The notes below the pieces were generated by a model. That model searched no databases and was not told the origin of the DNA. It saw only the letters and a program-made list of their open reading frames with translations. Of a stretch of 50,098 nt of DNA, positions 3,538 through 19,551 are shown piece by piece (positions within the stretch are counted from its first letter, which is position 1; each line of letters begins with the position of its first letter). Location: IMG/VR virus record IMGVR_UViG_3300044756_000004, positions 1 to 50,098 of that record; one strand, 5' to 3'. This stretch comes from a virus (Duplodnaviria > Caudoviricetes). The translations under genes and the position numbers were made by a program.

Positions 3538-3690
3538 TTGTAGGGGTGCGAACATGATGGTGTGGTATTGCCCACTAGATGGGCTGGAATACCGCTGCCT
3601 GCTATTGGTGGGCTGGCGGGTAGTACATCGGCTTGATGTCGATGGTAAGCCGTGGGTCAAGATGGTGAAGGACAAGGAAGTATCCTTATC

Positions 3691-3876
3691 ATGTCTGAAC
3701 TGAAGGAGATATGTGTTCAAGATGCTGTCAATCCTCCTTTAACAAGAAAGGAATTAAAAAGACTAGTCCGTGTACTTAAAAGTCTATGTCCTATCCATGC
3801 GATAGACACAGACTTGAAAGTAAACATCATCAAACGGGAAATCACCGTAGGCAATACCGTCTATTGGTGGGAATAA
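3691..3876 (+). CDS. Small hypothetical protein
   Basis: ORF; start at MSELKE. Confidence 0.45.
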   Translation: MSELKEICVQDAVNPPLTRKELKRLVRVLKSLCPIHAIDTDLKVNIIKREITVGNTVYWWE

Positions 3877-10872: not shown

Positions 10873-11041
10873 CGTAATCTATATTGACCATGCTACTTGG
10901 TATACTATGCGTCAATTGAAAGAGAACATTGCCTTCATGAAGAATGACAAAGAAAGTCAGTACGATTTGTCATTGAAGGCTGAGACAGATTTACTTAGAC
11001 ACTTTATGGATAGTGTCCTCAAACGAAAGGAAGCCGCGTGA
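10844..11041 (+). CDS. Small hypothetical protein
   Basis: AAGGA RBS; overlaps its neighbours. Confidence 0.6.
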   Translation: MTQTTTDTNNVIYIDHATWYTMRQLKENIAFMKNDKESQYDLSLKAETDLLRHFMDSVLKRKEAA

Positions 11042-11212
11042 ACAACTATAACAACAGAGGCACTCTGCTGGACAGAGCAGCAAAAGCTATGTCAAATATT
11101 ACTGTCATCGGCGTGTGCTGCGCTGTGCTGGCAGCAATGGGTTATCTGGCAAGCCAGCACATCAACTGCGTTGACTTCTTTCAGAAGTTCTGTGTAATCC
11201 ACTGATAATTAA

Positions 11213-11234
11213 GCCCGCCTTCGGGCGGGTGTTT
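11213..11234 (+). terminator. UUCG hairpin, possible weak terminator before the polymerase gene
   Basis: GCCCGCC-TTCG-GGCGGGT followed by GTTT. Confidence 0.5.
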
Positions 11235-13200
11235 GGTCATTTTGAGAATAGTAATAGACATAGAATGTAATGCACTTGTCAACCCTGACAGGTGCTGGTT
11301 GGTTGTCGCTAAAGACCTAGACACAGGGAGTTATCATGTCTTCAGGAATCTTACAGAGGACCCACAAGAGGCTCGTGACTTCAGAGAATTCTGTAGTAAG
11401 GTTGAGTTATTCGTGGGCCATAATTGGCTTGGTTATGATTGGCCTGTGCTCGTATTACTGGGTCTTCTTGAACCTCGTGATATTATACCTCACTCGCTCG
11501 ATACCCTCATCGTATCCAAACTAGTCGATTACTCTCGGAATGGGCATTCCATCGAGGATTACGGCCGTGAGTTTGGATTAGAGAAGGGGAAGTTCACAGA
11601 CTTTTCTAAATACTCCCAACAAATGGAGGATTATTGTGTTCGCGATGTAGACATATGTCATCGCATATATCTTAAGTACCTTAAGTATGTTTCTAATATT
11701 CAACATCGGCCTAGTATTATACTGGAACACGAATTTCAACTTGTGGTCAACGAGCTTCATAACAATGGTTTTGGCTTTAATAGTCGTAAGGCAAATAATC
11801 TCCTCGAAAAAGTTTCCAAAGAACTGGCCGCATTAGATAAAGATATCCTTGAAGCATTTCCTTCTAAGTTGAAGTTGATTAAAGAGATCACTCCAAAGGA
11901 GACTAAATTTGGAACTATATCACTTACTTCCATCCCCAGAAATATGCGTGATAGTATTAGTAATCTTAACGTTGGAGCACCTTTTTGCTATTGCGCTTGG
12001 ACAACCTTCAATCCTTCTTCTCATAAGCAGATTGTTGAAGTACTTAACCAAGCGGGATGGAAACCCATAGATCGTACTCAGACCCACATAGATACCCAAA
12101 GAAGGTGGGATCGGCTGAAGTATGCTAAAGGGAATAGAATAGCACTTGACACCGAGAAGAAAGAAGTCTATACTAAGCTCCAAGAATTAAGTAAGACTGG
12201 CTGGAAAGTCAACGAAGTTAACTTAGAGACTTTACCCCCATCTGCCCCTCCTTCAGCTAGAACTCTAGCTAAGCGCATCCTCCTTGAGTCCAGACGCCGA
12301 ACTCTCACCGAATGGTTAGGGCTTGTAACCGCTGATGACCGTATACACGGAAAATTCTATGGCATCGGTGCTTGGACTCATCGGATGGCGCATCAATCCC
12401 CCAATACTGCCAACATCCCCAACGAGTATGACACTGCGGGCAAGAAGAAGTTGCTCGGCAAAGAACTCCGCTCTCTTTGGTGTGCACCTCGCAATCGTCT
12501 GCTCGTTGGGGTTGACGCGGAAGGAATTCAACTCCGTATCTTTGCTCATCTGATTAACGATCAGGAGTTTACAGATGCCCTTGTCAATGGCAGAAAAGAA
12601 GACAAGACCGATCCACATTCGCTTAACCAGTCGATCATTGGTAGTACGTGTAAATCTAGAGCCGCTGCAAAACGTTTCATCTACGCTTTACTTCTCGGAG
12701 CGGGCTTGCCTAAACTGGCTGAAATCCTTGGGTGCACAATACCCGAAGCACAACAAGCGCTTGATAATTTGTTGGACCGATATTCCGGCTGGCAGACACT
12801 TAAGGAACAGGTTTTTCCGAAAGACGCAAAGCGCGGCTGGTTTACAGGACTGGATGGTCGCAAGGTCGCTATTCCCGGAGAGACAGCGAGCAACCGTAAA
12901 CATCTAGCGATGTCAGGTTATCTTCAAAATGGCGAAGCTGTCTGTATGAAGCTTGCCACTCTGAAGTGGATAGATAAGCTAAAGGATTACGATGCAAAGT
13001 TGGTCAACTTCGTTCACGATGAATGGCAGACTGAATGTCCGAATAACATGGAGACAGCCTTGGCTATTGCAAGTATGCAAGCCGACAGTCTCCGTATCGT
13101 TGGAGATGACTTGAAGCTCAATTGTCCGTTAGCAGGGAGTTACTACAATGACGATCTCAAGGACTACACCATCGCAACGAATTGGGCTCACACACATTGA
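11233..13200 (+). CDS. polA: Family A DNA polymerase with 3'-5' exonuclease (true start may be TTG 11242)
   Basis: Exo motifs DIECN, HNWLGYD, YCVRDV; motif A DAEGIQLR; motif B RAAAKRFIYALLLG; motif C VHDE. Confidence 0.95.
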   Translation: MVILRIVIDIECNALVNPDRCWLVVAKDLDTGSYHVFRNLTEDPQEARDFREFCSKVELFVGHNWLGYDWPVLVLLGLLEPRDIIPHSLDTLIVSKLVDYSRNGHSIEDYGREFGLEKGKFTDFSKYSQQMEDYCVRDVDICHRIYLKYLKYVSNIQHRPSIILEHEFQLVVNELHNNGFGFNSRKANNLLEKVSKELAALDKDILEAFPSKLKLIKEITPKETKFGTISLTSIPRNMRDSISNLNVGAPFCYCAWTTFNPSSHKQIVEVLNQAGWKPIDRTQTHIDTQRRWDRLKYAKGNRIALDTEKKEVYTKLQELSKTGWKVNEVNLETLPPSAPPSARTLAKRILLESRRRTLTEWLGLVTADDRIHGKFYGIGAWTHRMAHQSPNTANIPNEYDTAGKKKLLGKELRSLWCAPRNRLLVGVDAEGIQLRIFAHLINDQEFTDALVNGRKEDKTDPHSLNQSIIGSTCKSRAAAKRFIYALLLGAGLPKLAEILGCTIPEAQQALDNLLDRYSGWQTLKEQVFPKDAKRGWFTGLDGRKVAIPGETASNRKHLAMSGYLQNGEAVCMKLATLKWIDKLKDYDAKLVNFVHDEWQTECPNNMETALAIASMQADSLRIVGDDLKLNCPLAGSYYNDDLKDYTIATNWAHTH

Positions 13201-13295
13201 TTGTGAACCCGTATGGGAGGAGGATGAAATAATTTTATTTGACATGTACACCAAAGATGGTGTATGGTTAGGAAGTAAGCGTTTGCTTAGATATT

Positions 13296-13529
13296 GTGAG
13301 GAATTTAATGACCAGTTTAAATGACGCAAGTATAAAACATACTGCAACCTACGTTGTCGGATTTGTTGCAGGTCTTCTAGATGGGATGGCTCCCGGAACA
13401 TGGACTTCAATAAATCTCTATCACGATGATAACGGCTTATATGATGTAGCTGTTGTTGAAGGTCCATTAGATCGAAACGGAAATCTCTGGAATACTCCAG
13501 AAGGTTTAGAACTACCTAATAAAAATTAG
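13296..13529 (+). CDS. Small hypothetical protein
   Basis: ORF only; start uncertain. Confidence 0.5.
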   Translation: MRNLMTSLNDASIKHTATYVVGFVAGLLDGMAPGTWTSINLYHDDNGLYDVAVVEGPLDRNGNLWNTPEGLELPNKN

Positions 13530-13539
13530 AGAATTTATT

Positions 13540-13698
13540 ATGACAAGTTATGCAGTTAATTGTTCATTTAACGAAACCATTTTTATTGATGCTTCCGACA
13601 AGGAAGAGGCTGAAGATTTGGCCAAAGAAAACTTTGAGGTTGAGTACGGGTTGGCACCGGGTCAATGCTCCATTGAAAGTATAGAGGAAATTAAGTAA
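13540..13698 (+). CDS. Small acidic protein (52 aa, MTSYAVNCSFNETIFIDASDKEEAE...)
   Basis: Read manually; fills the gap up to the SSB start. Confidence 0.6.
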   Translation: MTSYAVNCSFNETIFIDASDKEEAEDLAKENFEVEYGLAPGQCSIESIEEIK

Positions 13699-14187
13699 TT
13701 GGCTTCAGAATTTATTGACGTTCAAGGCAAGGTGTCTTGGCTCCACGCGGTTGGATTTAATCGCTTCGACAAATGGAGCGTAACTCTTCACCCCGATACC
13801 CGTAGCCTTGAAGTCATTAGAGACTTACAGGCCCAAGGTATTAAGAACCAAATGAAGAAGGATGACGACGGATATTATATCCAGTTCTCCCGTGAGCCAA
13901 GTAAGCTCATGCGGGGTAAAGTTGTAGCCTTCGCAGCACCTAAGGTTGTCGATAAAGACGGTGTACCAATCGACGGTAGTAGAGTCGGTAACGGCTCAGA
14001 CGTCACTGTACGATTGGAGGTGTACCAGCACGGTACGCCTAACGGTGGGAAGGCTAAGGCAGCTAGGTTTGATAGCATCCGCATTGACAACCTTGTACCC
14101 TACCAACCTGATCGTGACCTTGGATCACAAGACGAGAAGGACGCAGTTAAATCACTAACTGAAGCTCCTGAACCATTGTTTAATTAG
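13699..14187 (+). CDS. Single-stranded DNA-binding protein (T7 gp2.5-like)
   Basis: P(K)VVD...VGNGSDV motif, KAARFDSIRIDNLVPY, acidic tail ending in an aromatic residue (EPLFN); sits after the polymerase. Confidence 0.75.
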   Translation: MASEFIDVQGKVSWLHAVGFNRFDKWSVTLHPDTRSLEVIRDLQAQGIKNQMKKDDDGYYIQFSREPSKLMRGKVVAFAAPKVVDKDGVPIDGSRVGNGSDVTVRLEVYQHGTPNGGKAKAARFDSIRIDNLVPYQPDRDLGSQDEKDAVKSLTEAPEPLFN

Positions 14188-14189
14188 GT

Positions 14190-15945
14190 ATTTGTTATTC
14201 CCTTTAGGAGGGAACCGCGCGTCCGTGAACGTTGACGGAGCAGAGGGTTTTAAACCAAACGCACCTCCTAATTCATTTTTCTGTCAGTGGTGTACGAAAC
14301 GTAGAAGACCCTGTAACACGTAGGGAGACTTATGAGCCCCGGTGGGTTGTGGACCTGCCTGATGTTACTGTTCTGGAGCGTGCTCAGCACACCAATCCTA
14401 GTAGGACGTCTTAGGACGCTATCTGTAAGACAAAGTGAGCTACAGGTTTGATCGAACGGATGGAGGAGCGGATTTACGACCCGTGTGACAGAAGAACTGT
14501 CCCTCGTAGTCCAAATACTTGAGGGATACCCCAGTGTGTAGGTGTGATCGTATCAGGTGCACATTGCAGCCGGAAGGTTAGCCGGACTCCCGTCGTGTTA
14601 CCCGATGGAGGCTAAAACAGGGAACACCAAGGTGTATATCGTTTCCTCTCCAGTGATATCTGGTTAAACATCAGCAAGCGGTTTAATAGTCCTACCCTAG
14701 AGTGGGTCCGTACGCAAAGGCGGAGGCCAACACCAACCAAGACTTAAGCTCTGGTAGACAGCAAAGACTAAAGAAGCAACGACCCCTTTGTTGGGTACAG
14801 CCCATCCTGAAGGAAGTTAGCTTCGATGTTATCTGCACATGTGAAACCTAGAATGAAGTGTACGCCAAAACTATAGCGGAATATGGCTTATGGCCGTGAC
14901 TTAAGCTCCGGTACGGTCCCCGTGATGATTAGTGTAATCGGCGAGTGCAGCTGCCCCGTGCATGGTTAAAGGTTAGCCAAAAACCAGCAGTAGTATGGAG
15001 GTTCAAATCTCCCATTCTTTGAATAGTCTGTGACGGACTAAGTAGCTCAGATAATGGAACCGAGCAGTACCGCTATGGTACTAAACGTACTCAAACCCAT
15101 TAAGCGCAAGATCGGCCCTGAACCGATCCTAGGCACTGGCTATGAACCATCAGTCCCATGTATACGCATGACCCCGAGGGGGTCCTAGACTACGCTCTGC
15201 GTTGACGAAGCTCTGGGCCAAGGCTGAAAAGGACTAGCAGGTTGGTCGCGAACACTCCGTAGCCTGTAACCCAACTCGGTGGTGAATCGAGGTCTTTGAC
15301 TAACGGGAAACCAATACGGAAAGGACAGACCGTCCGGATGTCTAACATCTGGTCACTCTGTTTATCTGAATCTGCACCACCTGTTTCGTGGCAGCAGACG
15401 CCCCTGCAAACCTGAATCAGGTTCATCTCAGGAAGAGCGTAATCTGAAGCAGGAAACGCCGCCTCTTTGGCCGAAAGGTTTTTAAAAAAGCGGAGAGCCC
15501 TGAAACAAACGACGACTACAAGTAGTTAGAGCAGGAACAAAACTGGCTCACACGAAGGTGTAGAAGTGATCAGCATCTCAGTCTCTGTATATGTACACTA
15601 TCTTACACAGTGGAAACCACGCAAGATATGCTCTGCGTAAATACAGCCGGGACCTGATCCGTACGAACGTAGATTGTGAGAAGGGTAATCAATCCCCTCA
15701 CGACGTCCTGAACCTCAACACTCCTTAAAATTCCAGCAGATTACTGGATAGAGAGGGAGTATCAACCGAACGGAGATCGGCAATGATGTTCAACGATGTA
15801 ACCCCCAGAAGAATAAGATGTTTAATAGACCATCGGCAACTTGGACAACCTCCTTAACAAAGAGGGGCGATAGTTAGCGATGGGGCCATGACTACCACGT
15901 GTCATATACCGTGGCGCTCTGGCCCCGCCCCCAACGCCCCCACAA
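14190..15945 (+). ncRNA. Candidate large structured non-coding RNA or RNA cluster
   Basis: No credible ORF across ~1.75 kb; continuous nested stems with G-U pairs favouring the + strand; GAAA-type loops. Confidence 0.65.
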
Positions 15946-15958
15946 CCGGAGAAGTAAC

Positions 15959-16279
15959 ATGGCTAAGAATGGATCAGATTTGGTCGCAGTGTTGGAATAC
16001 CTCGACCGCAAGACAGCTTTCAAGCCGCCCAAGTCGGGCCGTAAGACTAGGAAGTTGGTTATCCCAGATGAATTCGATTTGATTTCCTACGTTCAGAAGA
16101 AGGAAGAAGAAGTCGAACGTTGGAAGAAGTATTTGAAGGACAAAGAGAAGTTGGAGAAGAAGGACACCAAACCAGAGTATAAGGGACCGAACCTGAAGTT
16201 CGTCGAATGGTACATCATTGGTATTCTCTCTTATCCTCTTGTCGGTCATATCTGGCAACTCGCAACAACAGTAAAGTAA
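15959..16279 (+). CDS. Hypothetical protein with C-terminal hydrophobic segment
   Basis: GGAG RBS before MAKNGSDL. Confidence 0.7.
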   Translation: MAKNGSDLVAVLEYLDRKTAFKPPKSGRKTRKLVIPDEFDLISYVQKKEEEVERWKKYLKDKEKLEKKDTKPEYKGPNLKFVEWYIIGILSYPLVGHIWQLATTVK

Positions 16280-16280
16280 A

Positions 16281-17144
16281 TTGGCTTCAATACACACACT
16301 AATCCCTGACATCTACAAACTCGTGGGGTCCGACAATGGCTGGCTCACCGATCTGGTCGCATCCGATATGGGTGACGACATTGCAAGCGCTCTCAAAGTT
16401 TCCTTCGGACCACAAGAGCCACGTGGTTTACGTCTCAGTGGCCTTGGCCCCTCCTGCCCTAAAGCTCTCTGGCATCGCATCCGTACCCCCGAGCTTGCAG
16501 AACCCCTTCCTCCATATGCCCGTATCAAATACTCCTATGGACACATCATCGAGCACCTCGTTATCGGTCTCGCGAAAGCCGCAGGACATGAAGTAACAGG
16601 AGAGCAAGATGAAATCTCTGTTGATGGAGTCACCGGCCACAGGGACTGCGTTATTGATGGTTGCATCGTTGATGTCAAATCTTCTTCTTCCTTTGGCCTT
16701 CAGAAGCTCAAAGACAAAACTATTGCACAAGATGATAATTTTGGGTATCTGGATCAACTTGACGGGTATCTTGTGGGGTCAATGGATGACCCTCTGGTCC
16801 GTACTAAGGACCGGGCCTATCTCTTGGCTGTAGACAAAACCCTTGGACACATGGTGTTATATGAACACATCCTCAGAGAACAATCTATTAGGGAACGAAT
16901 ATCTGCTTACAAGCAAGTTGTTCGATCAGATCAACCACCTCGATGCGAATGCGGGATTGTCCCTGACGGAAAAAGTGGCAATCTTAAGCTCGATACAAAA
17001 GCTAGTTACAGTGCTTTTCGCCACGTATGCCATCCGGGCCTGCGGACGTTTCTTTACGCGTCAGGACCCGTCTACTTAACCAAGGTGGTTCGCCCACCTG
17101 CTCCATATATAATTGAGTTAAAGCAATGGAACAATTTACAATAA
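16281..17144 (+). CDS. PD-(D/E)XK (Cas4-like) exonuclease
   Basis: RLSGLG.SCPKALW; GHIIE; GHRDCVIDGCIVDVKS; YLDQL..Y. Confidence 0.85.
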   Translation: MASIHTLIPDIYKLVGSDNGWLTDLVASDMGDDIASALKVSFGPQEPRGLRLSGLGPSCPKALWHRIRTPELAEPLPPYARIKYSYGHIIEHLVIGLAKAAGHEVTGEQDEISVDGVTGHRDCVIDGCIVDVKSSSSFGLQKLKDKTIAQDDNFGYLDQLDGYLVGSMDDPLVRTKDRAYLLAVDKTLGHMVLYEHILREQSIRERISAYKQVVRSDQPPRCECGIVPDGKSGNLKLDTKASYSAFRHVCHPGLRTFLYASGPVYLTKVVRPPAPYIIELKQWNNLQ

Positions 17145-17365
17145 AAATACTAAACAAAGCTACAACTATGGATATGGTACTTCGTTATTACTCTGCTCAA
17201 AAAACCCTTACTTATTTTAATAATAAGAAGTTAGTTCTTCTTGATGGACATCTTGGAGAAGCTGGACAATTTCACGGTCCCATTTGGGCTCTTGTTGACG
17301 AAGACAATAAATGTTTAACAGTAACCCGTGAATTGACCGATCTTCTTTCTTTGAAAGAAATATGA
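17126..17365 (+). CDS. Small hypothetical protein (AT-rich)
   Basis: ORF overlapping the nuclease stop. Confidence 0.5.
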   Translation: MEQFTIKILNKATTMDMVLRYYSAQKTLTYFNNKKLVLLDGHLGEAGQFHGPIWALVDEDNKCLTVTRELTDLLSLKEI

Positions 17366-17503
17366 TGGAAAAATGGAAGAAGAATGCTTGGCGGTCCGTC
17401 TGGACTCAACGTCGAGATGAATTAGTCAGAGCATGTGCTCGCTACCCGGACTCCGATAGGTATCCGACACGGCAGATCGAACTTCAGGAGTTGAACGCAA
17501 AGC

Positions 17504-17857
17504 TTGAAGACCTCGACAAGGAATAGATATCTCCTTAAGAAATTTGGGATAACAGAGGAACAGTATGATGAGCTTTTCAGGAAACAAGGCGGACGCTGCG
17601 CAGTATGTAAACGATTATCTTCTAGCTTCAAAACCCGGCTCGCTGTCGATCACGATCACCGATCAGGACACATCAGGGGGTTGCTGTGTATACATTGCAA
17701 CCGATATGTCGTCGGACGACATCGTAAAGATGTTGGGTCAAGCTTGCTTAGAGCGGCTTACGAGTACTTAGAAGCAGAATACCCCGGATGGATAGTACCA
17801 CCGAAGAAGAGGAAAAGACATGGTAGGAAAAGATTACGACGAGTTCGACATACGTGA
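17504..17857 (+). CDS. Recombination endonuclease VII-like protein
   Basis: KFGITEEQY...QGGRCAVC...LAVDHDH..GHIRGLLCIHCN. Confidence 0.9.
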   Translation: MKTSTRNRYLLKKFGITEEQYDELFRKQGGRCAVCKRLSSSFKTRLAVDHDHRSGHIRGLLCIHCNRYVVGRHRKDVGSSLLRAAYEYLEAEYPGWIVPPKKRKRHGRKRLRRVRHT

Positions 17858-17947
17858 CGCACGCAATGCAGGCTTCTGGACTGGAGCACTGGCAGGAAGT
17901 TTTGGCACCTTTGTTCTCTGCCTACTGTTGGGGTTCTATTTCTCAAG

Positions 17948-18097
17948 TTGACTGATTACGCTGCCATCCTTGATGTATACTCCATCGAAGAACTACTGGA
18001 ACTAAACGACCTTACTACAGAAGACTTACTTATTTATTTAGTTGAGGAAGGGTATCTTTCTCTTCCTTCTATCAAACCTTTAGAGTTCGATGATTAA
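17948..18097 (+). CDS. Small acidic protein (49 aa, ...YSIEELLELNDLTTEDLL...)
   Basis: Read manually; TTG start; helical acidic composition. Confidence 0.5.
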   Translation: MTDYAAILDVYSIEELLELNDLTTEDLLIYLVEEGYLSLPSIKPLEFDD

Positions 18098-18207
18098 GAA
18101 AACAAAACACCCGACGAACAAGCTTGAACGCCGGGTTATTGCAAAGAAGAAAATACATTCTAACGCTTCCCCTGTTTATTTGCTCCTTAAAGAGAAGGAA
18201 GAACAAG

Positions 18208-18414
18208 ATGCGTCAGCTTCGAAACATCGAGTGTTATCTGTCGGACGCGAACCTACGTGATGCAGTGTCGGGTCTTCTCTACACCCTGAACATCGTCCGT
18301 GACAATGAGATCATCGTTTCTCTTACTGTCGGTAACTCTGATGCCGAAGGTATCCGACCCATCAGCTTCACTTGCATTGAAGAGAAGGAGACTATGCTTG
18401 TAGTTCATAAGTAA
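18208..18414 (+). CDS. Small hypothetical protein
   Basis: AAGGA RBS before MRQLRNIEC. Confidence 0.6.
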   Translation: MRQLRNIECYLSDANLRDAVSGLLYTLNIVRDNEIIVSLTVGNSDAEGIRPISFTCIEEKETMLVVHK

Positions 18415-18454
18415 TTAATTTAAATTAGGGCCATTGCCCTAAGAAGGAAAAGAA

Positions 18455-18646
18455 ATGACACATGAAAACACGATTCCCGCTGACATCAATATTCCGGTCG
18501 ATCTCGTCGAAATTCTCGATGAAGCAGGCAACCCCACCGGGCAGTACCGAATTGCCCCCGTGGACGGAGCAACCTATAGTGACGGTGAAACCCCATACGA
18601 GGGGACCACGGTCACGGAAGACACCCCCGATCACGTCGTCCACTAA
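18455..18646 (+). CDS. Small acidic protein
   Basis: AAGGA RBS; 63 aa. Confidence 0.6.
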   Translation: MTHENTIPADINIPVDLVEILDEAGNPTGQYRIAPVDGATYSDGETPYEGTTVTEDTPDHVVH

Positions 18647-18656
18647 TTTATCATTG

Positions 18657-18802
18657 TGATGTGTTGAGGATTTGGTGGGGTGACCGTCCGAGCGCCTTAA
18701 GCAGCAGCGTAGACCCCTCCACAGAGGACACCTCTGACATATAGGTTGAAATCCGGCACCGTACTAGTTATCGGTAAAAGTTCGGAATTCCTATTCACAT
18801 CA
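18657..18802 (+). ncRNA. Candidate ~150-nt structured RNA
   Basis: Closing stem TGATGTG/CACATCA enclosing several helices; terminator immediately downstream. Confidence 0.45.
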
Positions 18803-18808
18803 ACGAAG

Positions 18809-18846
18809 AAGGAGCTAGGTTATCTCCGTTTCCTAGCTCCTTTTTC
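18809..18846 (+). terminator. Rho-independent terminator
   Basis: AAGGAGCTAGG-loop-CCTAGCTCCTT followed by TTTT. Confidence 0.8.
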
Positions 18847-18858
18847 TATGGAGGTATT

Positions 18859-19551
18859 ATGTTAGGTAGGAATAAGTATATTAAAATTCGTCGCGAATAT
18901 TTCGGTGAAACTTCTTTAGAAGCTTCAAATAATTTCATTAAATATAAGAAAGTAAAAATGAGACTTGATTCTCTTAAGTGTAAAAAAGTTGAATTAGTTG
19001 ATTGCCCAACGGCACAACCAACTCCGGTCTGGAATACACCTATGCCCGGCTGTTGTTCAAAAGAAGAAGGGAAAACCCCCATGCGTTACAATGACAACTA
19101 TGCTCATGCTTCCGTCACTGCTCCTCAGTCGGATACGGCTGTGACTCGTGACTATCTCAACGGTCGTTTGGTTCAGGCTTTCGGTCTGAAGGAACGGGAG
19201 TTTCATACGATCTTCAATCTCTACGTCGATAATACTCCTAAGACTTATAAGGAGATGATCGACGCAATCAAGAATGATAAGTTCAAGATTGATCCGAAGG
19301 TTGAACGTCGTCTGGCTGATGCTGAAGACGATAAAGATGAAGATTCCTTCCGGTTCTACGGACCGATGTCTGGCATTATCTGGGATGGCCCGCAGCCTGA
19401 CCGTAAGGGTTACGAGGCTGCGTGTACTGAGATGGACAAGCAGTACAGGAAGGCCAATGATGCTGTGATGGTGAAGTCGGCTGAAGACGGTCTGGCTGCC
19501 ATTGAAGCGTTCGAAGCTTGGCTGCCTACGAAGGCTGACACTGCCCAGTAA
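18859..19551 (+). CDS. Hypothetical protein (alternative start 19081)
   Basis: GGAGG RBS at 18859; AT-rich 5' part, GC-richer after MRYNDNY. Confidence 0.75.
   Translation: MLGRNKYIKIRREYFGETSLEASNNFIKYKKVKMRLDSLKCKKVELVDCPTAQPTPVWNTPMPGCCSKEEGKTPMRYNDNYAHASVTAPQSDTAVTRDYLNGRLVQAFGLKEREFHTIFNLYVDNTPKTYKEMIDAIKNDKFKIDPKVERRLADAEDDKDEDSFRFYGPMSGIIWDGPQPDRKGYEAACTEMDKQYRKANDAVMVKSAEDGLAAIEAFEAWLPTKADTAQ

Follow-up and report, generated by a model that had tools for sequence, protein, structure and literature searches.

What fills the largest gene-free gap in the genome of an uncultivated soil phage? The window analysed here is the entire IMG/VR virus record IMGVR_UViG_3300044756_000004 (50,098 nucleotides (nt), rated 99% complete), and the gap extends from the stop codon of the gene for a single-stranded DNA-binding protein (SSB; 14187) to an ATG at 15959. 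A preliminary description of this stretch had proposed a giant, densely base-paired non-coding RNA, either related to the phage RNAs GOLLD and ROOL or forming a new class. Comparison with homologous phage sequences indicates that the interval from 14188 to about 15770 is likely to be a conserved structured non-coding RNA locus on the plus strand, be it in one piece or in several. A conserved, non-coding and structure-constrained element of exceptional length stands, but the flagged interval ends in ~190 nt that lie outside the non-coding RNA and belong to a different element.

Related loci were gathered from viral contigs, 60 of them through the exonuclease gene downstream of the gap and 3 through the SSB gene. 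According to blastn and nhmmer, the gap is collinear from end to end in the loci L002, L004 and L063, with L064 as a partial copy, and matches L003 in patches. A gapped sequence pattern of the domain termed D4 below retrieved 4 viral contigs, all already known, and 6 metagenome contigs, among them one new variant (L085) and two copies of L003, and it was found in none of 185,579 species genomes. A 16-mer scan of viral contigs gave 19 matches; 4 were the known homologues and the remainder had no nhmmer profile match. L084, L087 and L089 match L003 at every position over 1,900 nt, and L064 does not differ from L063, leaving six distinct homologous sequences: the window, L002, L004, L063, L003 and L085. 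The five homologues besides the window are soil phage contigs, and all sequencing runs that hold the DNA of the window are soil metagenomes.

Consensus folding was assessed with RNAalifold in 200-column windows of a four-sequence alignment, in comparison to column shuffles that preserve conservation and gap patterns. On the plus strand, 13 of the 14 windows over 14188-15500 showed z-scores from -3 to -7, the exceptional one (-0.2) spanning an insertion in L002 and L004; over 15500-15960 the scores lay between 0 and -2.8. Coding controls, taken in these four phages from the polymerase gene and from genes downstream, ranged from -2.4 to +2.0 on the same strand (22 windows). Supported helices, defined as those with at least 4 base pairs, at least 2 doubly changed pairs and at most 10% broken cells, numbered 22, i.e., 12.4 per kb versus 1.9-5.7 per kb in the coding controls. 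The fold is thus conserved with compensatory changes beyond those of the controls, as expected of a large structured non-coding RNA.

Lack of covariation in homologues had been named in the preliminary description as one refuting outcome; covariation was found. For D4, 95.2% of 168 cells are paired over six sequences, in comparison to 24-42% when the partner strand is slid, and 16 of 28 pairs are doubly changed. For the adjacent hairpins H2 and H3 (14494-14572 in alignment A6, six sequences), 92.6% of the cells are paired versus 25-49% in the slid controls, with 14 of 25 pairs doubly changed. Not one of 500 shuffles reached the observed value in either case. From 5' to 3', the RNA stretch is composed as follows.

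14188-14276, plus strand: variable 5' leader containing local hairpins, immediately downstream of the SSB stop; 0.39-0.46 identical to L002, L004 and L063.
14277-14496, plus strand: multibranched domain D1, 220 nt, closed by the long-range helix P1; RNAalifold z-scores -4 to -7.
14498-14566, plus strand: adjacent hairpins H2 (14498-14528) and H3 (14532-14566), curated over 6 sequences.
14626-14765, plus strand: domain D2, 140 nt; identity 0.72-0.75 versus 0.42-0.53 at third codon positions.
14825-15059, plus strand: domain D3, 235 nt, a cloverleaf-like four-way junction; 19 of 55 predicted pairs doubly changed in 4 sequences.
15066-15135, plus strand: hairpin at 15066-15082, then a conserved block of TTAAGCG, hairpin GATCGG/CCGATC and GGCACTG, which is common to L003.
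From the end of this block at 15135 to 15249, plus strand: variable middle part, up to D4.
15250-15365, plus strand: domain D4, 116 nt, aligned over 6 sequences (alignment A4) and captured by covariance model R1.
15366-15770, plus strand: variable 3' part; identity to L004 and L063 0.34-0.50, RNAalifold z-scores 0 to -2.8.

Identity between the window and L004 or L063 amounts to 0.56-0.84 in the core domains, to 0.34-0.50 in the linkers between them, and, for the same pairs, to 0.42-0.53 at third codon positions in the genes on either side (polymerase and exonuclease). The cores therefore are under purifying selection, whereas the linkers are not, at least in sequence. The 5' leader is not conserved in sequence either and varies at about the level of third codon positions.

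The stems that had been listed for this region in the preliminary description are all present at the coordinates given there, including TTCTGTCA 14279/TGACAGAA 14486, TGTCCCTC 14498/GAGGGATA 14521, CAGTGTGTA 14532/TGCACATTG 14558, CCGGATG 15334/CATCTGG 15346 and GGGGCG 15864/CGCCCC 15935. The first of them belongs to P1, which pairs 14277-14286 with 14486-14495. Its arms are complementary in all six homologous sequences in five different spellings (TTCTGTCA/TGACAGAA, TTTCGTCA/TGACGAAA, TTCGTCAG/CTGACGAA, TTCACCAG/CTGGTGAA and TTCTATTCA/TGGATAGAA), as read by eye from the sequences; MAFFT sets the arms in three registers, so that their columns are uncountable. Double changes are also present in the inner helices of D1. 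Domain D2 contains two invariant blocks, ACCAAGGTGTATATCG (14626-14641, 16 nt) and CCAACACCAACCA (13 nt), a helix of 14639-14649 with 14718-14729 that shows 5 doubly changed pairs, 6 G·U cells and no A·C cell, and a hairpin at 14736-14756 that carries the recurrent module described below. An expansion site follows at 14763/14768, where L002 and L004 hold insertions of ~200 nt.

Domain D3 is enclosed by an invariant clamp of 8 base pairs, GTTATCTG (14828-14835) with CAGATAAT (15048-15055). Inside it, an acceptor-like stem pairs AGAATG (14850-14855) with CATTCT (15013-15018), and two arms (arm 1, 14863-14943; arm 2, 14945-14996; 50-80 nt long) are followed by a T-arm-like hairpin at 14997-15012, which abuts the 3' strand of the closing stem. 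Its loop, GUUCAAAU, is invariant and its stem covaries (GGAG/CTCC, GTGG/CCAC and GCAG/CTGC). In tRNA, the T arm likewise abuts the 3' strand of the acceptor stem. Domain D3 thus resembles tRNAs, tRNA-like structures and the tRNA-like domain of tmRNA in its closing stem, its three arms and a T-loop-type hairpin directly 5' of the acceptor-like 3' strand. It differs from tRNA in the length of its arms, which deviates from the standard, in having no anticodon loop call (ARAGORN predicts 0 genes) and no CCA, and in its position inside a longer conserved region. The Rfam models of tRNA and tmRNA do not match it either. The layout suggests a processing site or a tRNA mimic.

Further downstream, the hairpin in 15066-15135 contains 5 doubly changed pairs. 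Domain D4 is built from a helix TCCGTA/TACGGA, a hairpin with the invariant loop UGGUGAA (15276-15290) and a long hairpin at 15327-15359 with the loop UCUAA and an invariant G·U pair. The variable 3' part includes an expansion specific to the window (about 15366-15504), a conserved hairpin CACAC-GAAG-GTGTAG at about 15549-15563, and a hairpin with the conserved loop CAGAUUA (15732-15748), whose stems differ in 5 homologues and contain 4 doubly changed pairs.

A hairpin tip of the form A-UGAC-NN-GCUCU recurs along the RNA, closed by stems of differing sequence. All exact copies in the RNA region of L063 (6 of 6) and L004 (5 of 5) are on the plus strand, as are the copies of a looser pattern counted by eye (~9 in L063, ~8 in L004). 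The window has 2 exact and ~4 degenerate copies, and the pattern TGAC-N1-5-GCTCY, with 4 matches in the whole window versus 3.6 expected, is not enriched there; it stands out only in L063 and L004. The two best copies of the window (14741-14756 and 14898-14913) both hold the self-complementary CUUAAG. The copies of L063 and L004 spell this site otherwise, so self-pairing of the loop is not conserved.

Which strand folds? We consider it very probable that it is the plus strand, because the G·U pairs of the curated domains agree with the loops of T-loop type, with the way the recurrent module is oriented and with the direction in which the neighbouring genes run. Helices 1, 2, 3 and 5 of D4 contain 16 G·U cells and no unpaired cell, and one G·U is kept in all six sequences. 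H3 has 9 G·U cells versus 1 unpaired, with one U·G kept in 5 of 6, and two G·U pairs in arm 2 of D3 are invariant in all 4 sequences. The loops of the T-loop-type hairpins can be read correctly only on the plus strand, and the neighbouring genes are all on that strand. The earlier statement that many stems need G-U pairs of the plus-strand transcript is accordingly borne out in the curated domains, but not in global tests across the alignment, which are given next.

Several results weigh against the assignment as a conserved structured RNA of the plus strand. Consensus energies are practically the same on the two strands (-620 and -621), as are the numbers of supported helices (22 and 23); the union of helices contains 79 G·U versus 68 A·C cells, and symmetric helix calling without G·U pairs favoured the plus strand by only about 2:1 (21 versus 11 overall and 11 versus 4 in supported helices). 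In the single sequence, the minimum free energy (MFE) of the plus strand reaches z-scores of -0.33 (14188-15100) and -2.0 (15050-15960), and that of the minus strand 0.0 in the first half and -5.25 in the second (20 shuffles each). The MFE structure of the window keeps 0.363 of changed cells, within the 0.35-0.41 of slid controls. Only 6 distinct sequences are available, which makes the covariation statistics modest, and their kinship is not accounted for. A scan for promoter and terminator consensus sequences gave nothing above shuffles and nothing that delimits the RNA stretch. L085 keeps D1, H2/H3, D4 and the 3' end, with other sequence in place of D2 and D3, and the window, otherwise closer to L002, has a D3 with higher identity to L063 (0.84) than to L002 (0.64). 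Finally, a soil metatranscriptome run (X15) holds 7 short contig pieces on 11000-19000, in 7 of 30 bins, 4 of them in the gap and 3 in flanking genes, two pieces being perfect over 67 and 91 nt; these pieces are partial matches from relatives, strandless and without end information, with DNA carry-over possible, and we do not count them as evidence. Dense base pairing and a folding energy beyond shuffles, both raised in the preliminary description, are thus unremarkable when the window is folded by itself and become significant only in comparison with homologues, where the consensus beats column shuffles.

How many RNAs the locus yields is a separate question. A possible, though rather doubtful, answer that overlaps with the reading as one RNA locus is an array of independent RNAs (D1-D4 and others) that would be cut from the operon transcript, e.g., a tRNA mimic together with small RNAs. 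Conserved domains separated by near-neutral linkers (identity 0.34-0.50) would suit such an array, and the tRNA-like layout of D3 could attract tRNA-processing enzymes. The different sequence in place of D2/D3 in L085 and the mosaic relationship of D3 indicate that domains are exchanged independently, which fits separate units as well as one RNA, and no covarying long-range helix that joins domains was found within a span limit of 500-700 nt. However, in the six homologues the domains always occur together and in unchanged order, internal promoter- or terminator-like signals were not found by the consensus scan, and contacts between domains could be made by several single-stranded blocks and loops that, being invariant, leave no covariation signal. 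A single multi-domain RNA of ~1.6 kb is plausible, our judgement leaning slightly against it.

The mosaic relationships suggest recombination between phages inside the RNA locus. The parts of the window next to D3 (15060-15770) are 95-98% identical to L002 and 39-50% identical to L063 and L004. L003 carries ~220 extra nt before D1 (3545-3767 of that locus) with several strong hairpins, one of which has a C(UUCG)G tetraloop on the plus strand; another stretch there resembles a tRNA D-arm, and ARAGORN reports no tRNA.

Might the gap instead be a remnant of genes? Its longest open reading frames (ORFs) have 78 amino acids on the minus strand and 60 on the plus strand, in agreement with the preliminary description, and each of the six frames contains 21-43 stop codons. 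An alternative genetic code was tried and rejected, as reassignment of any single stop codon opens at most 141 codons. Compared with L004 or L063, synonymous changes are in excess in no 25-codon window of the gap. That genes or a tRNA island have decayed here and left chance hairpins is highly improbable. tRNA islands are frequent in phages, and the window, L003 and L085 do contain T-loop-like hairpins, but ARAGORN found no tRNA or tmRNA gene in the window or in 15 related loci, a coding signature is missing from the gap, structure is conserved beyond that of coding controls, and the core domains are more conserved than synonymous sites.

The gap lies, as had been described, inside a replication module. 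Genes are on the plus strand from 1 to 20 kb, a block that encodes a primase-helicase, a family-A DNA polymerase, the gp2.5-like SSB, an exonuclease with a Cas4 domain and endonuclease VII (Endo VII), the last two downstream of the gap. From 20 to 48 kb, they are on the minus strand and form a podovirus-type structural block. A phage RNA polymerase was not recognised among the genes of the window, and the DNA polymerase shares at most ~40% identity with its counterparts in cultured phages, Roseobacter phage CRP-5 giving the best match.

Pre-primer RNAs act at replication origins, e.g., ColE1 RNA II and the T7 origin transcripts. The locus could be a replication element of this kind, namely a structured pre-primer RNA that hybridises at an origin and is extended by the family-A polymerase, or a set of origin hairpins in single-stranded DNA, since it is the largest non-coding stretch and follows right after the polymerase and SSB genes. 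We regard this as very unlikely. The GC content across the gap (0.47-0.52) is at or above that of the neighbouring DNA and its profile contains no A+T-rich unwinding region; iterons and tandem repeats are absent from the gap, whose repeats are dispersed, 11-17 nt long and present in two copies each. Folding as RNA, and not duplex DNA sites, is favoured by the conserved G·U pairs and the loops of T-loop type, and known primers are far shorter than 1.6 kb.

The 3' end of the flagged interval differs in kind from the structured locus. Long reading frames are indeed absent up to 15959, but the earlier statement that no credible coding sequence exists there has to give way to a conserved short one. 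Two features make up this part.

15783-15857, plus strand: leader ORF of 24 codons from ATG 15783 to TAA 15855-15857, with Shine-Dalgarno (SD) sequence GGAG at 15772-15775.
15860-15958, plus strand: G/C-rich hairpin GGGGCG 15864/CGCCCC 15935 enclosing GGGGCCA 15882/TGGCCCC 15920, then SD 15948-15951 and ATG 15959 of the next gene; every family member has a G/C-rich hairpin here, followed by such an SD and ATG.

The leader peptide ends in Arg-Gln-Leu-Gly-Gln-Pro-Pro-stop, and the end of its ORF (15837-15857) is the most widely conserved block of the gap. Over the last eight codons, the six homologues show synonymous changes only, apart from one Arg/Lys and one Gly/Ser codon, i.e., this short ORF with its SD sequence is conserved at the level of the peptide. 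The block CAACCTCCTTAA was also considered as an antitermination-type signal and rejected, since its variation falls on third codon positions and an in-frame SD and ATG precede it in each homologue.

The leader extends beyond the six homologues. Among 58 family loci with enough upstream DNA, Gln-Pro-Pro-stop is found within 900 nt upstream of the exonuclease match in 23; another 22 carry a Pro-Pro-stop string, which is unchecked except in L008 (Arg-Pro-Pro-stop), and 13 have none, L004 among them having been missed through the distance limit. Listed leaders of the family typically have 11-25 codons and a strong GGAGG. Loci with the leader ORF include the window, L005, L008-L010, L014, L019, L021, L027, L030, L032, L035, L038, L041-L044, L046 and L060, and the next gene there is a small one before the Cas4-like exonuclease. 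In the window, this gene (15959-16279, just after the leader ORF) encodes a lysine-rich product of 106 amino acids with a hydrophobic C-terminal segment resembling a membrane span; the product has no Pfam or PHROG match.

In our reading, 15772-15958 would be a unit of translational control, distinct from the large RNA. Termination after Pro-Pro is slow, and during translation of the leader such slow termination would underlie control of the next gene. In the MFE fold of the window, the SD sequence GGAG of the next gene (15948-15951) is paired to the CUCC at 15850-15853, part of the Pro-Pro codons. This pairing with the downstream SD appears in 2 of 6 folded sequences (window and L046); in L010, L038 and L043, CCUCC pairs with the leader's own SD, and L063 shows no pairing with the downstream SD. 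Leader-peptide attenuators with stalling C-termini include ermC, tnaC and Pro-rich leaders. Like attenuators of the ermC and tnaC type, the unit has a short ORF with its own SD, here ending in Pro-Pro-stop, a downstream hairpin and a predicted CCUCC:SD pairing. Unlike them, it resides in phages, ahead of a small membrane-type gene and an exonuclease. The Pro-Pro-stop leader is a second, independent candidate regulatory element, common to much of this phage family.

The leader also bears on a further explanation, by which the whole gap would act in cis as a very long structured intercistronic leader that, together with the Pro-Pro-stop leader peptide, sets timing, stability or translation of the small gene, exonuclease and Endo VII downstream. 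The gap indeed lies between plus-strand genes of one module with no terminator-like site downstream of the SSB gene in the consensus scan, its 3' end holds the leader ORF and the hairpin with predicted anti-SD:SD pairing, and the leader ORF occurs family-wide, the structured region upstream varying by subgroup. Still, 1.6 kb of covarying helices and invariant loops far exceeds what known cis-regulators need, conserved domains lie up to 1.5 kb from the start codon to be regulated, and the part adjoining the leader ORF (15366-15770) is the least conserved. A purely cis-acting role thus seems unlikely to us.

Does the structured locus belong to a known family? A cmscan against Rfam 15, as had been proposed, returned nothing real. 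The covariance models of GOLLD and ROOL had no match at the gathering score in the whole window, at E ≤ 10 in 13900-16300, or at E ≤ 5 in any of L063, L004, L003, L085 and L020. The other families (OLE, HEARO, raiA, RNase P, tmRNA, group I and II introns and 6S among them) had no match in the same runs; HIV_GSL3 (E 8.8) and SNORD52 (E 2.7), the only matches, are sub-threshold, lie outside the RNA and are due to chance. The suggested kinship to GOLLD and ROOL is not supported, even at permissive E-values, and the alternative put forward with it, a new class, agrees with the searches. Blastn of the gap against a phage collection gave no match either, and the literature searched contained no description of the RNA locus or of a Pro-Pro-stop phage leader. 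We conclude that the locus probably represents a new class of large phage RNA. Fragments of it could be among the 8,495 candidate structured RNAs of 29-151 nt that a survey of IMG/VR describes (PMC10690425).

A study on large RNAs gives GOLLD as longer than 800 nt and ROOL env-120 as 659 nt, places GOLLD and ROOL near tRNA islands, with tRNAs sometimes inside the GOLLD linker, and reports that GOLLD, ROOL and OLE form unexpected RNA-only assemblies (10.1101/2024.12.08.627333). The candidate RNA of the window is like GOLLD and ROOL in being very long, multi-domain, phage-borne and supported by covariation, with tRNA-related elements nearby or inside, and, as GOLLD has a conserved and a variable part, it has conserved domains and variable linkers. 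It differs from both in matching no Rfam model and in its predicted length, about twice theirs. It is also located inside the replication operon of lytic-type podophages and not beside tRNA genes.

How might such an RNA work? The RNA locus would most likely be co-transcribed with the replication genes, i.e., SSB upstream and the small gene, the Cas4-like exonuclease and Endo VII downstream. The transcript would comprise four to five folded domains (D1, H2/H3, D2, D3 and D4) joined by near-neutral linkers that accept insertions in the manner of expansion segments. It would persist as one long RNA, or cleavage at the tRNA-like domain would split it into a small number of large fragments. Partners, be they proteins or other RNA, are suggested by the invariant loops and by the recurring hairpin tips. 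The RNA would then act in trans as a scaffold or decoy for host or phage factors, with contacts through the loops UGGUGAA, UCUAA, CAGAUUA and GUUCAAAU and the tip A-UGAC-NN-GCUCU; we consider this function rather unlikely to be the correct one, but worth stating. CsrB and RsmZ, protein-sponge RNAs with repeated hairpin loops (GGA loops), offer a comparison. As in these RNAs, a short loop motif repeats at hairpin tips along one RNA. Unlike in CsrB and RsmZ, the tip is unrelated to GGA loops, and the exact copies of the window are no more than expected by chance.

A survey of the family places the locus in a wider context. When the window and 62 loci (671 kb) were searched with model R1, D4 was detected in the six homologues and nowhere else; the remaining ~55 relatives therefore lack it. 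At the same site, L020 (3301-5334; with L026 and L023) has a 2-kb non-coding gap with RNAalifold z-scores of -1.5 to -11, and L010 (4360-5300; with L007, L008 and L025) has a non-coding stretch of ~1 kb with scores of -0.9 to -4.5. Neither of these shares a motif or the D4 domain with the window RNA. Thus the family retains at this site a non-coding region that is long and structured but turns over in content.

Very large structured RNAs besides rRNA are rare, and a locus of ~1.6 kb unrelated to curated families would extend this small set. Its genomic setting is different too, a replication operon in uncultivated lytic-type podophages of soil, and the domain coordinates and six homologues provide seeds for covariance models. 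In its boldest and quite speculative form, the proposal is one RNA of ~1.6 kb with an embedded tRNA mimic and repeated tips, which would assemble into an RNA or RNA-protein particle during infection. If true, this would be the largest ornate non-ribosomal structured phage RNA so far, about twice the size of GOLLD. The site between SSB and exonuclease would in that case serve as a cradle of giant RNAs that evolve fast, since the non-coding regions of 1-2 kb found there in other subgroups of the family are different but no less structured.

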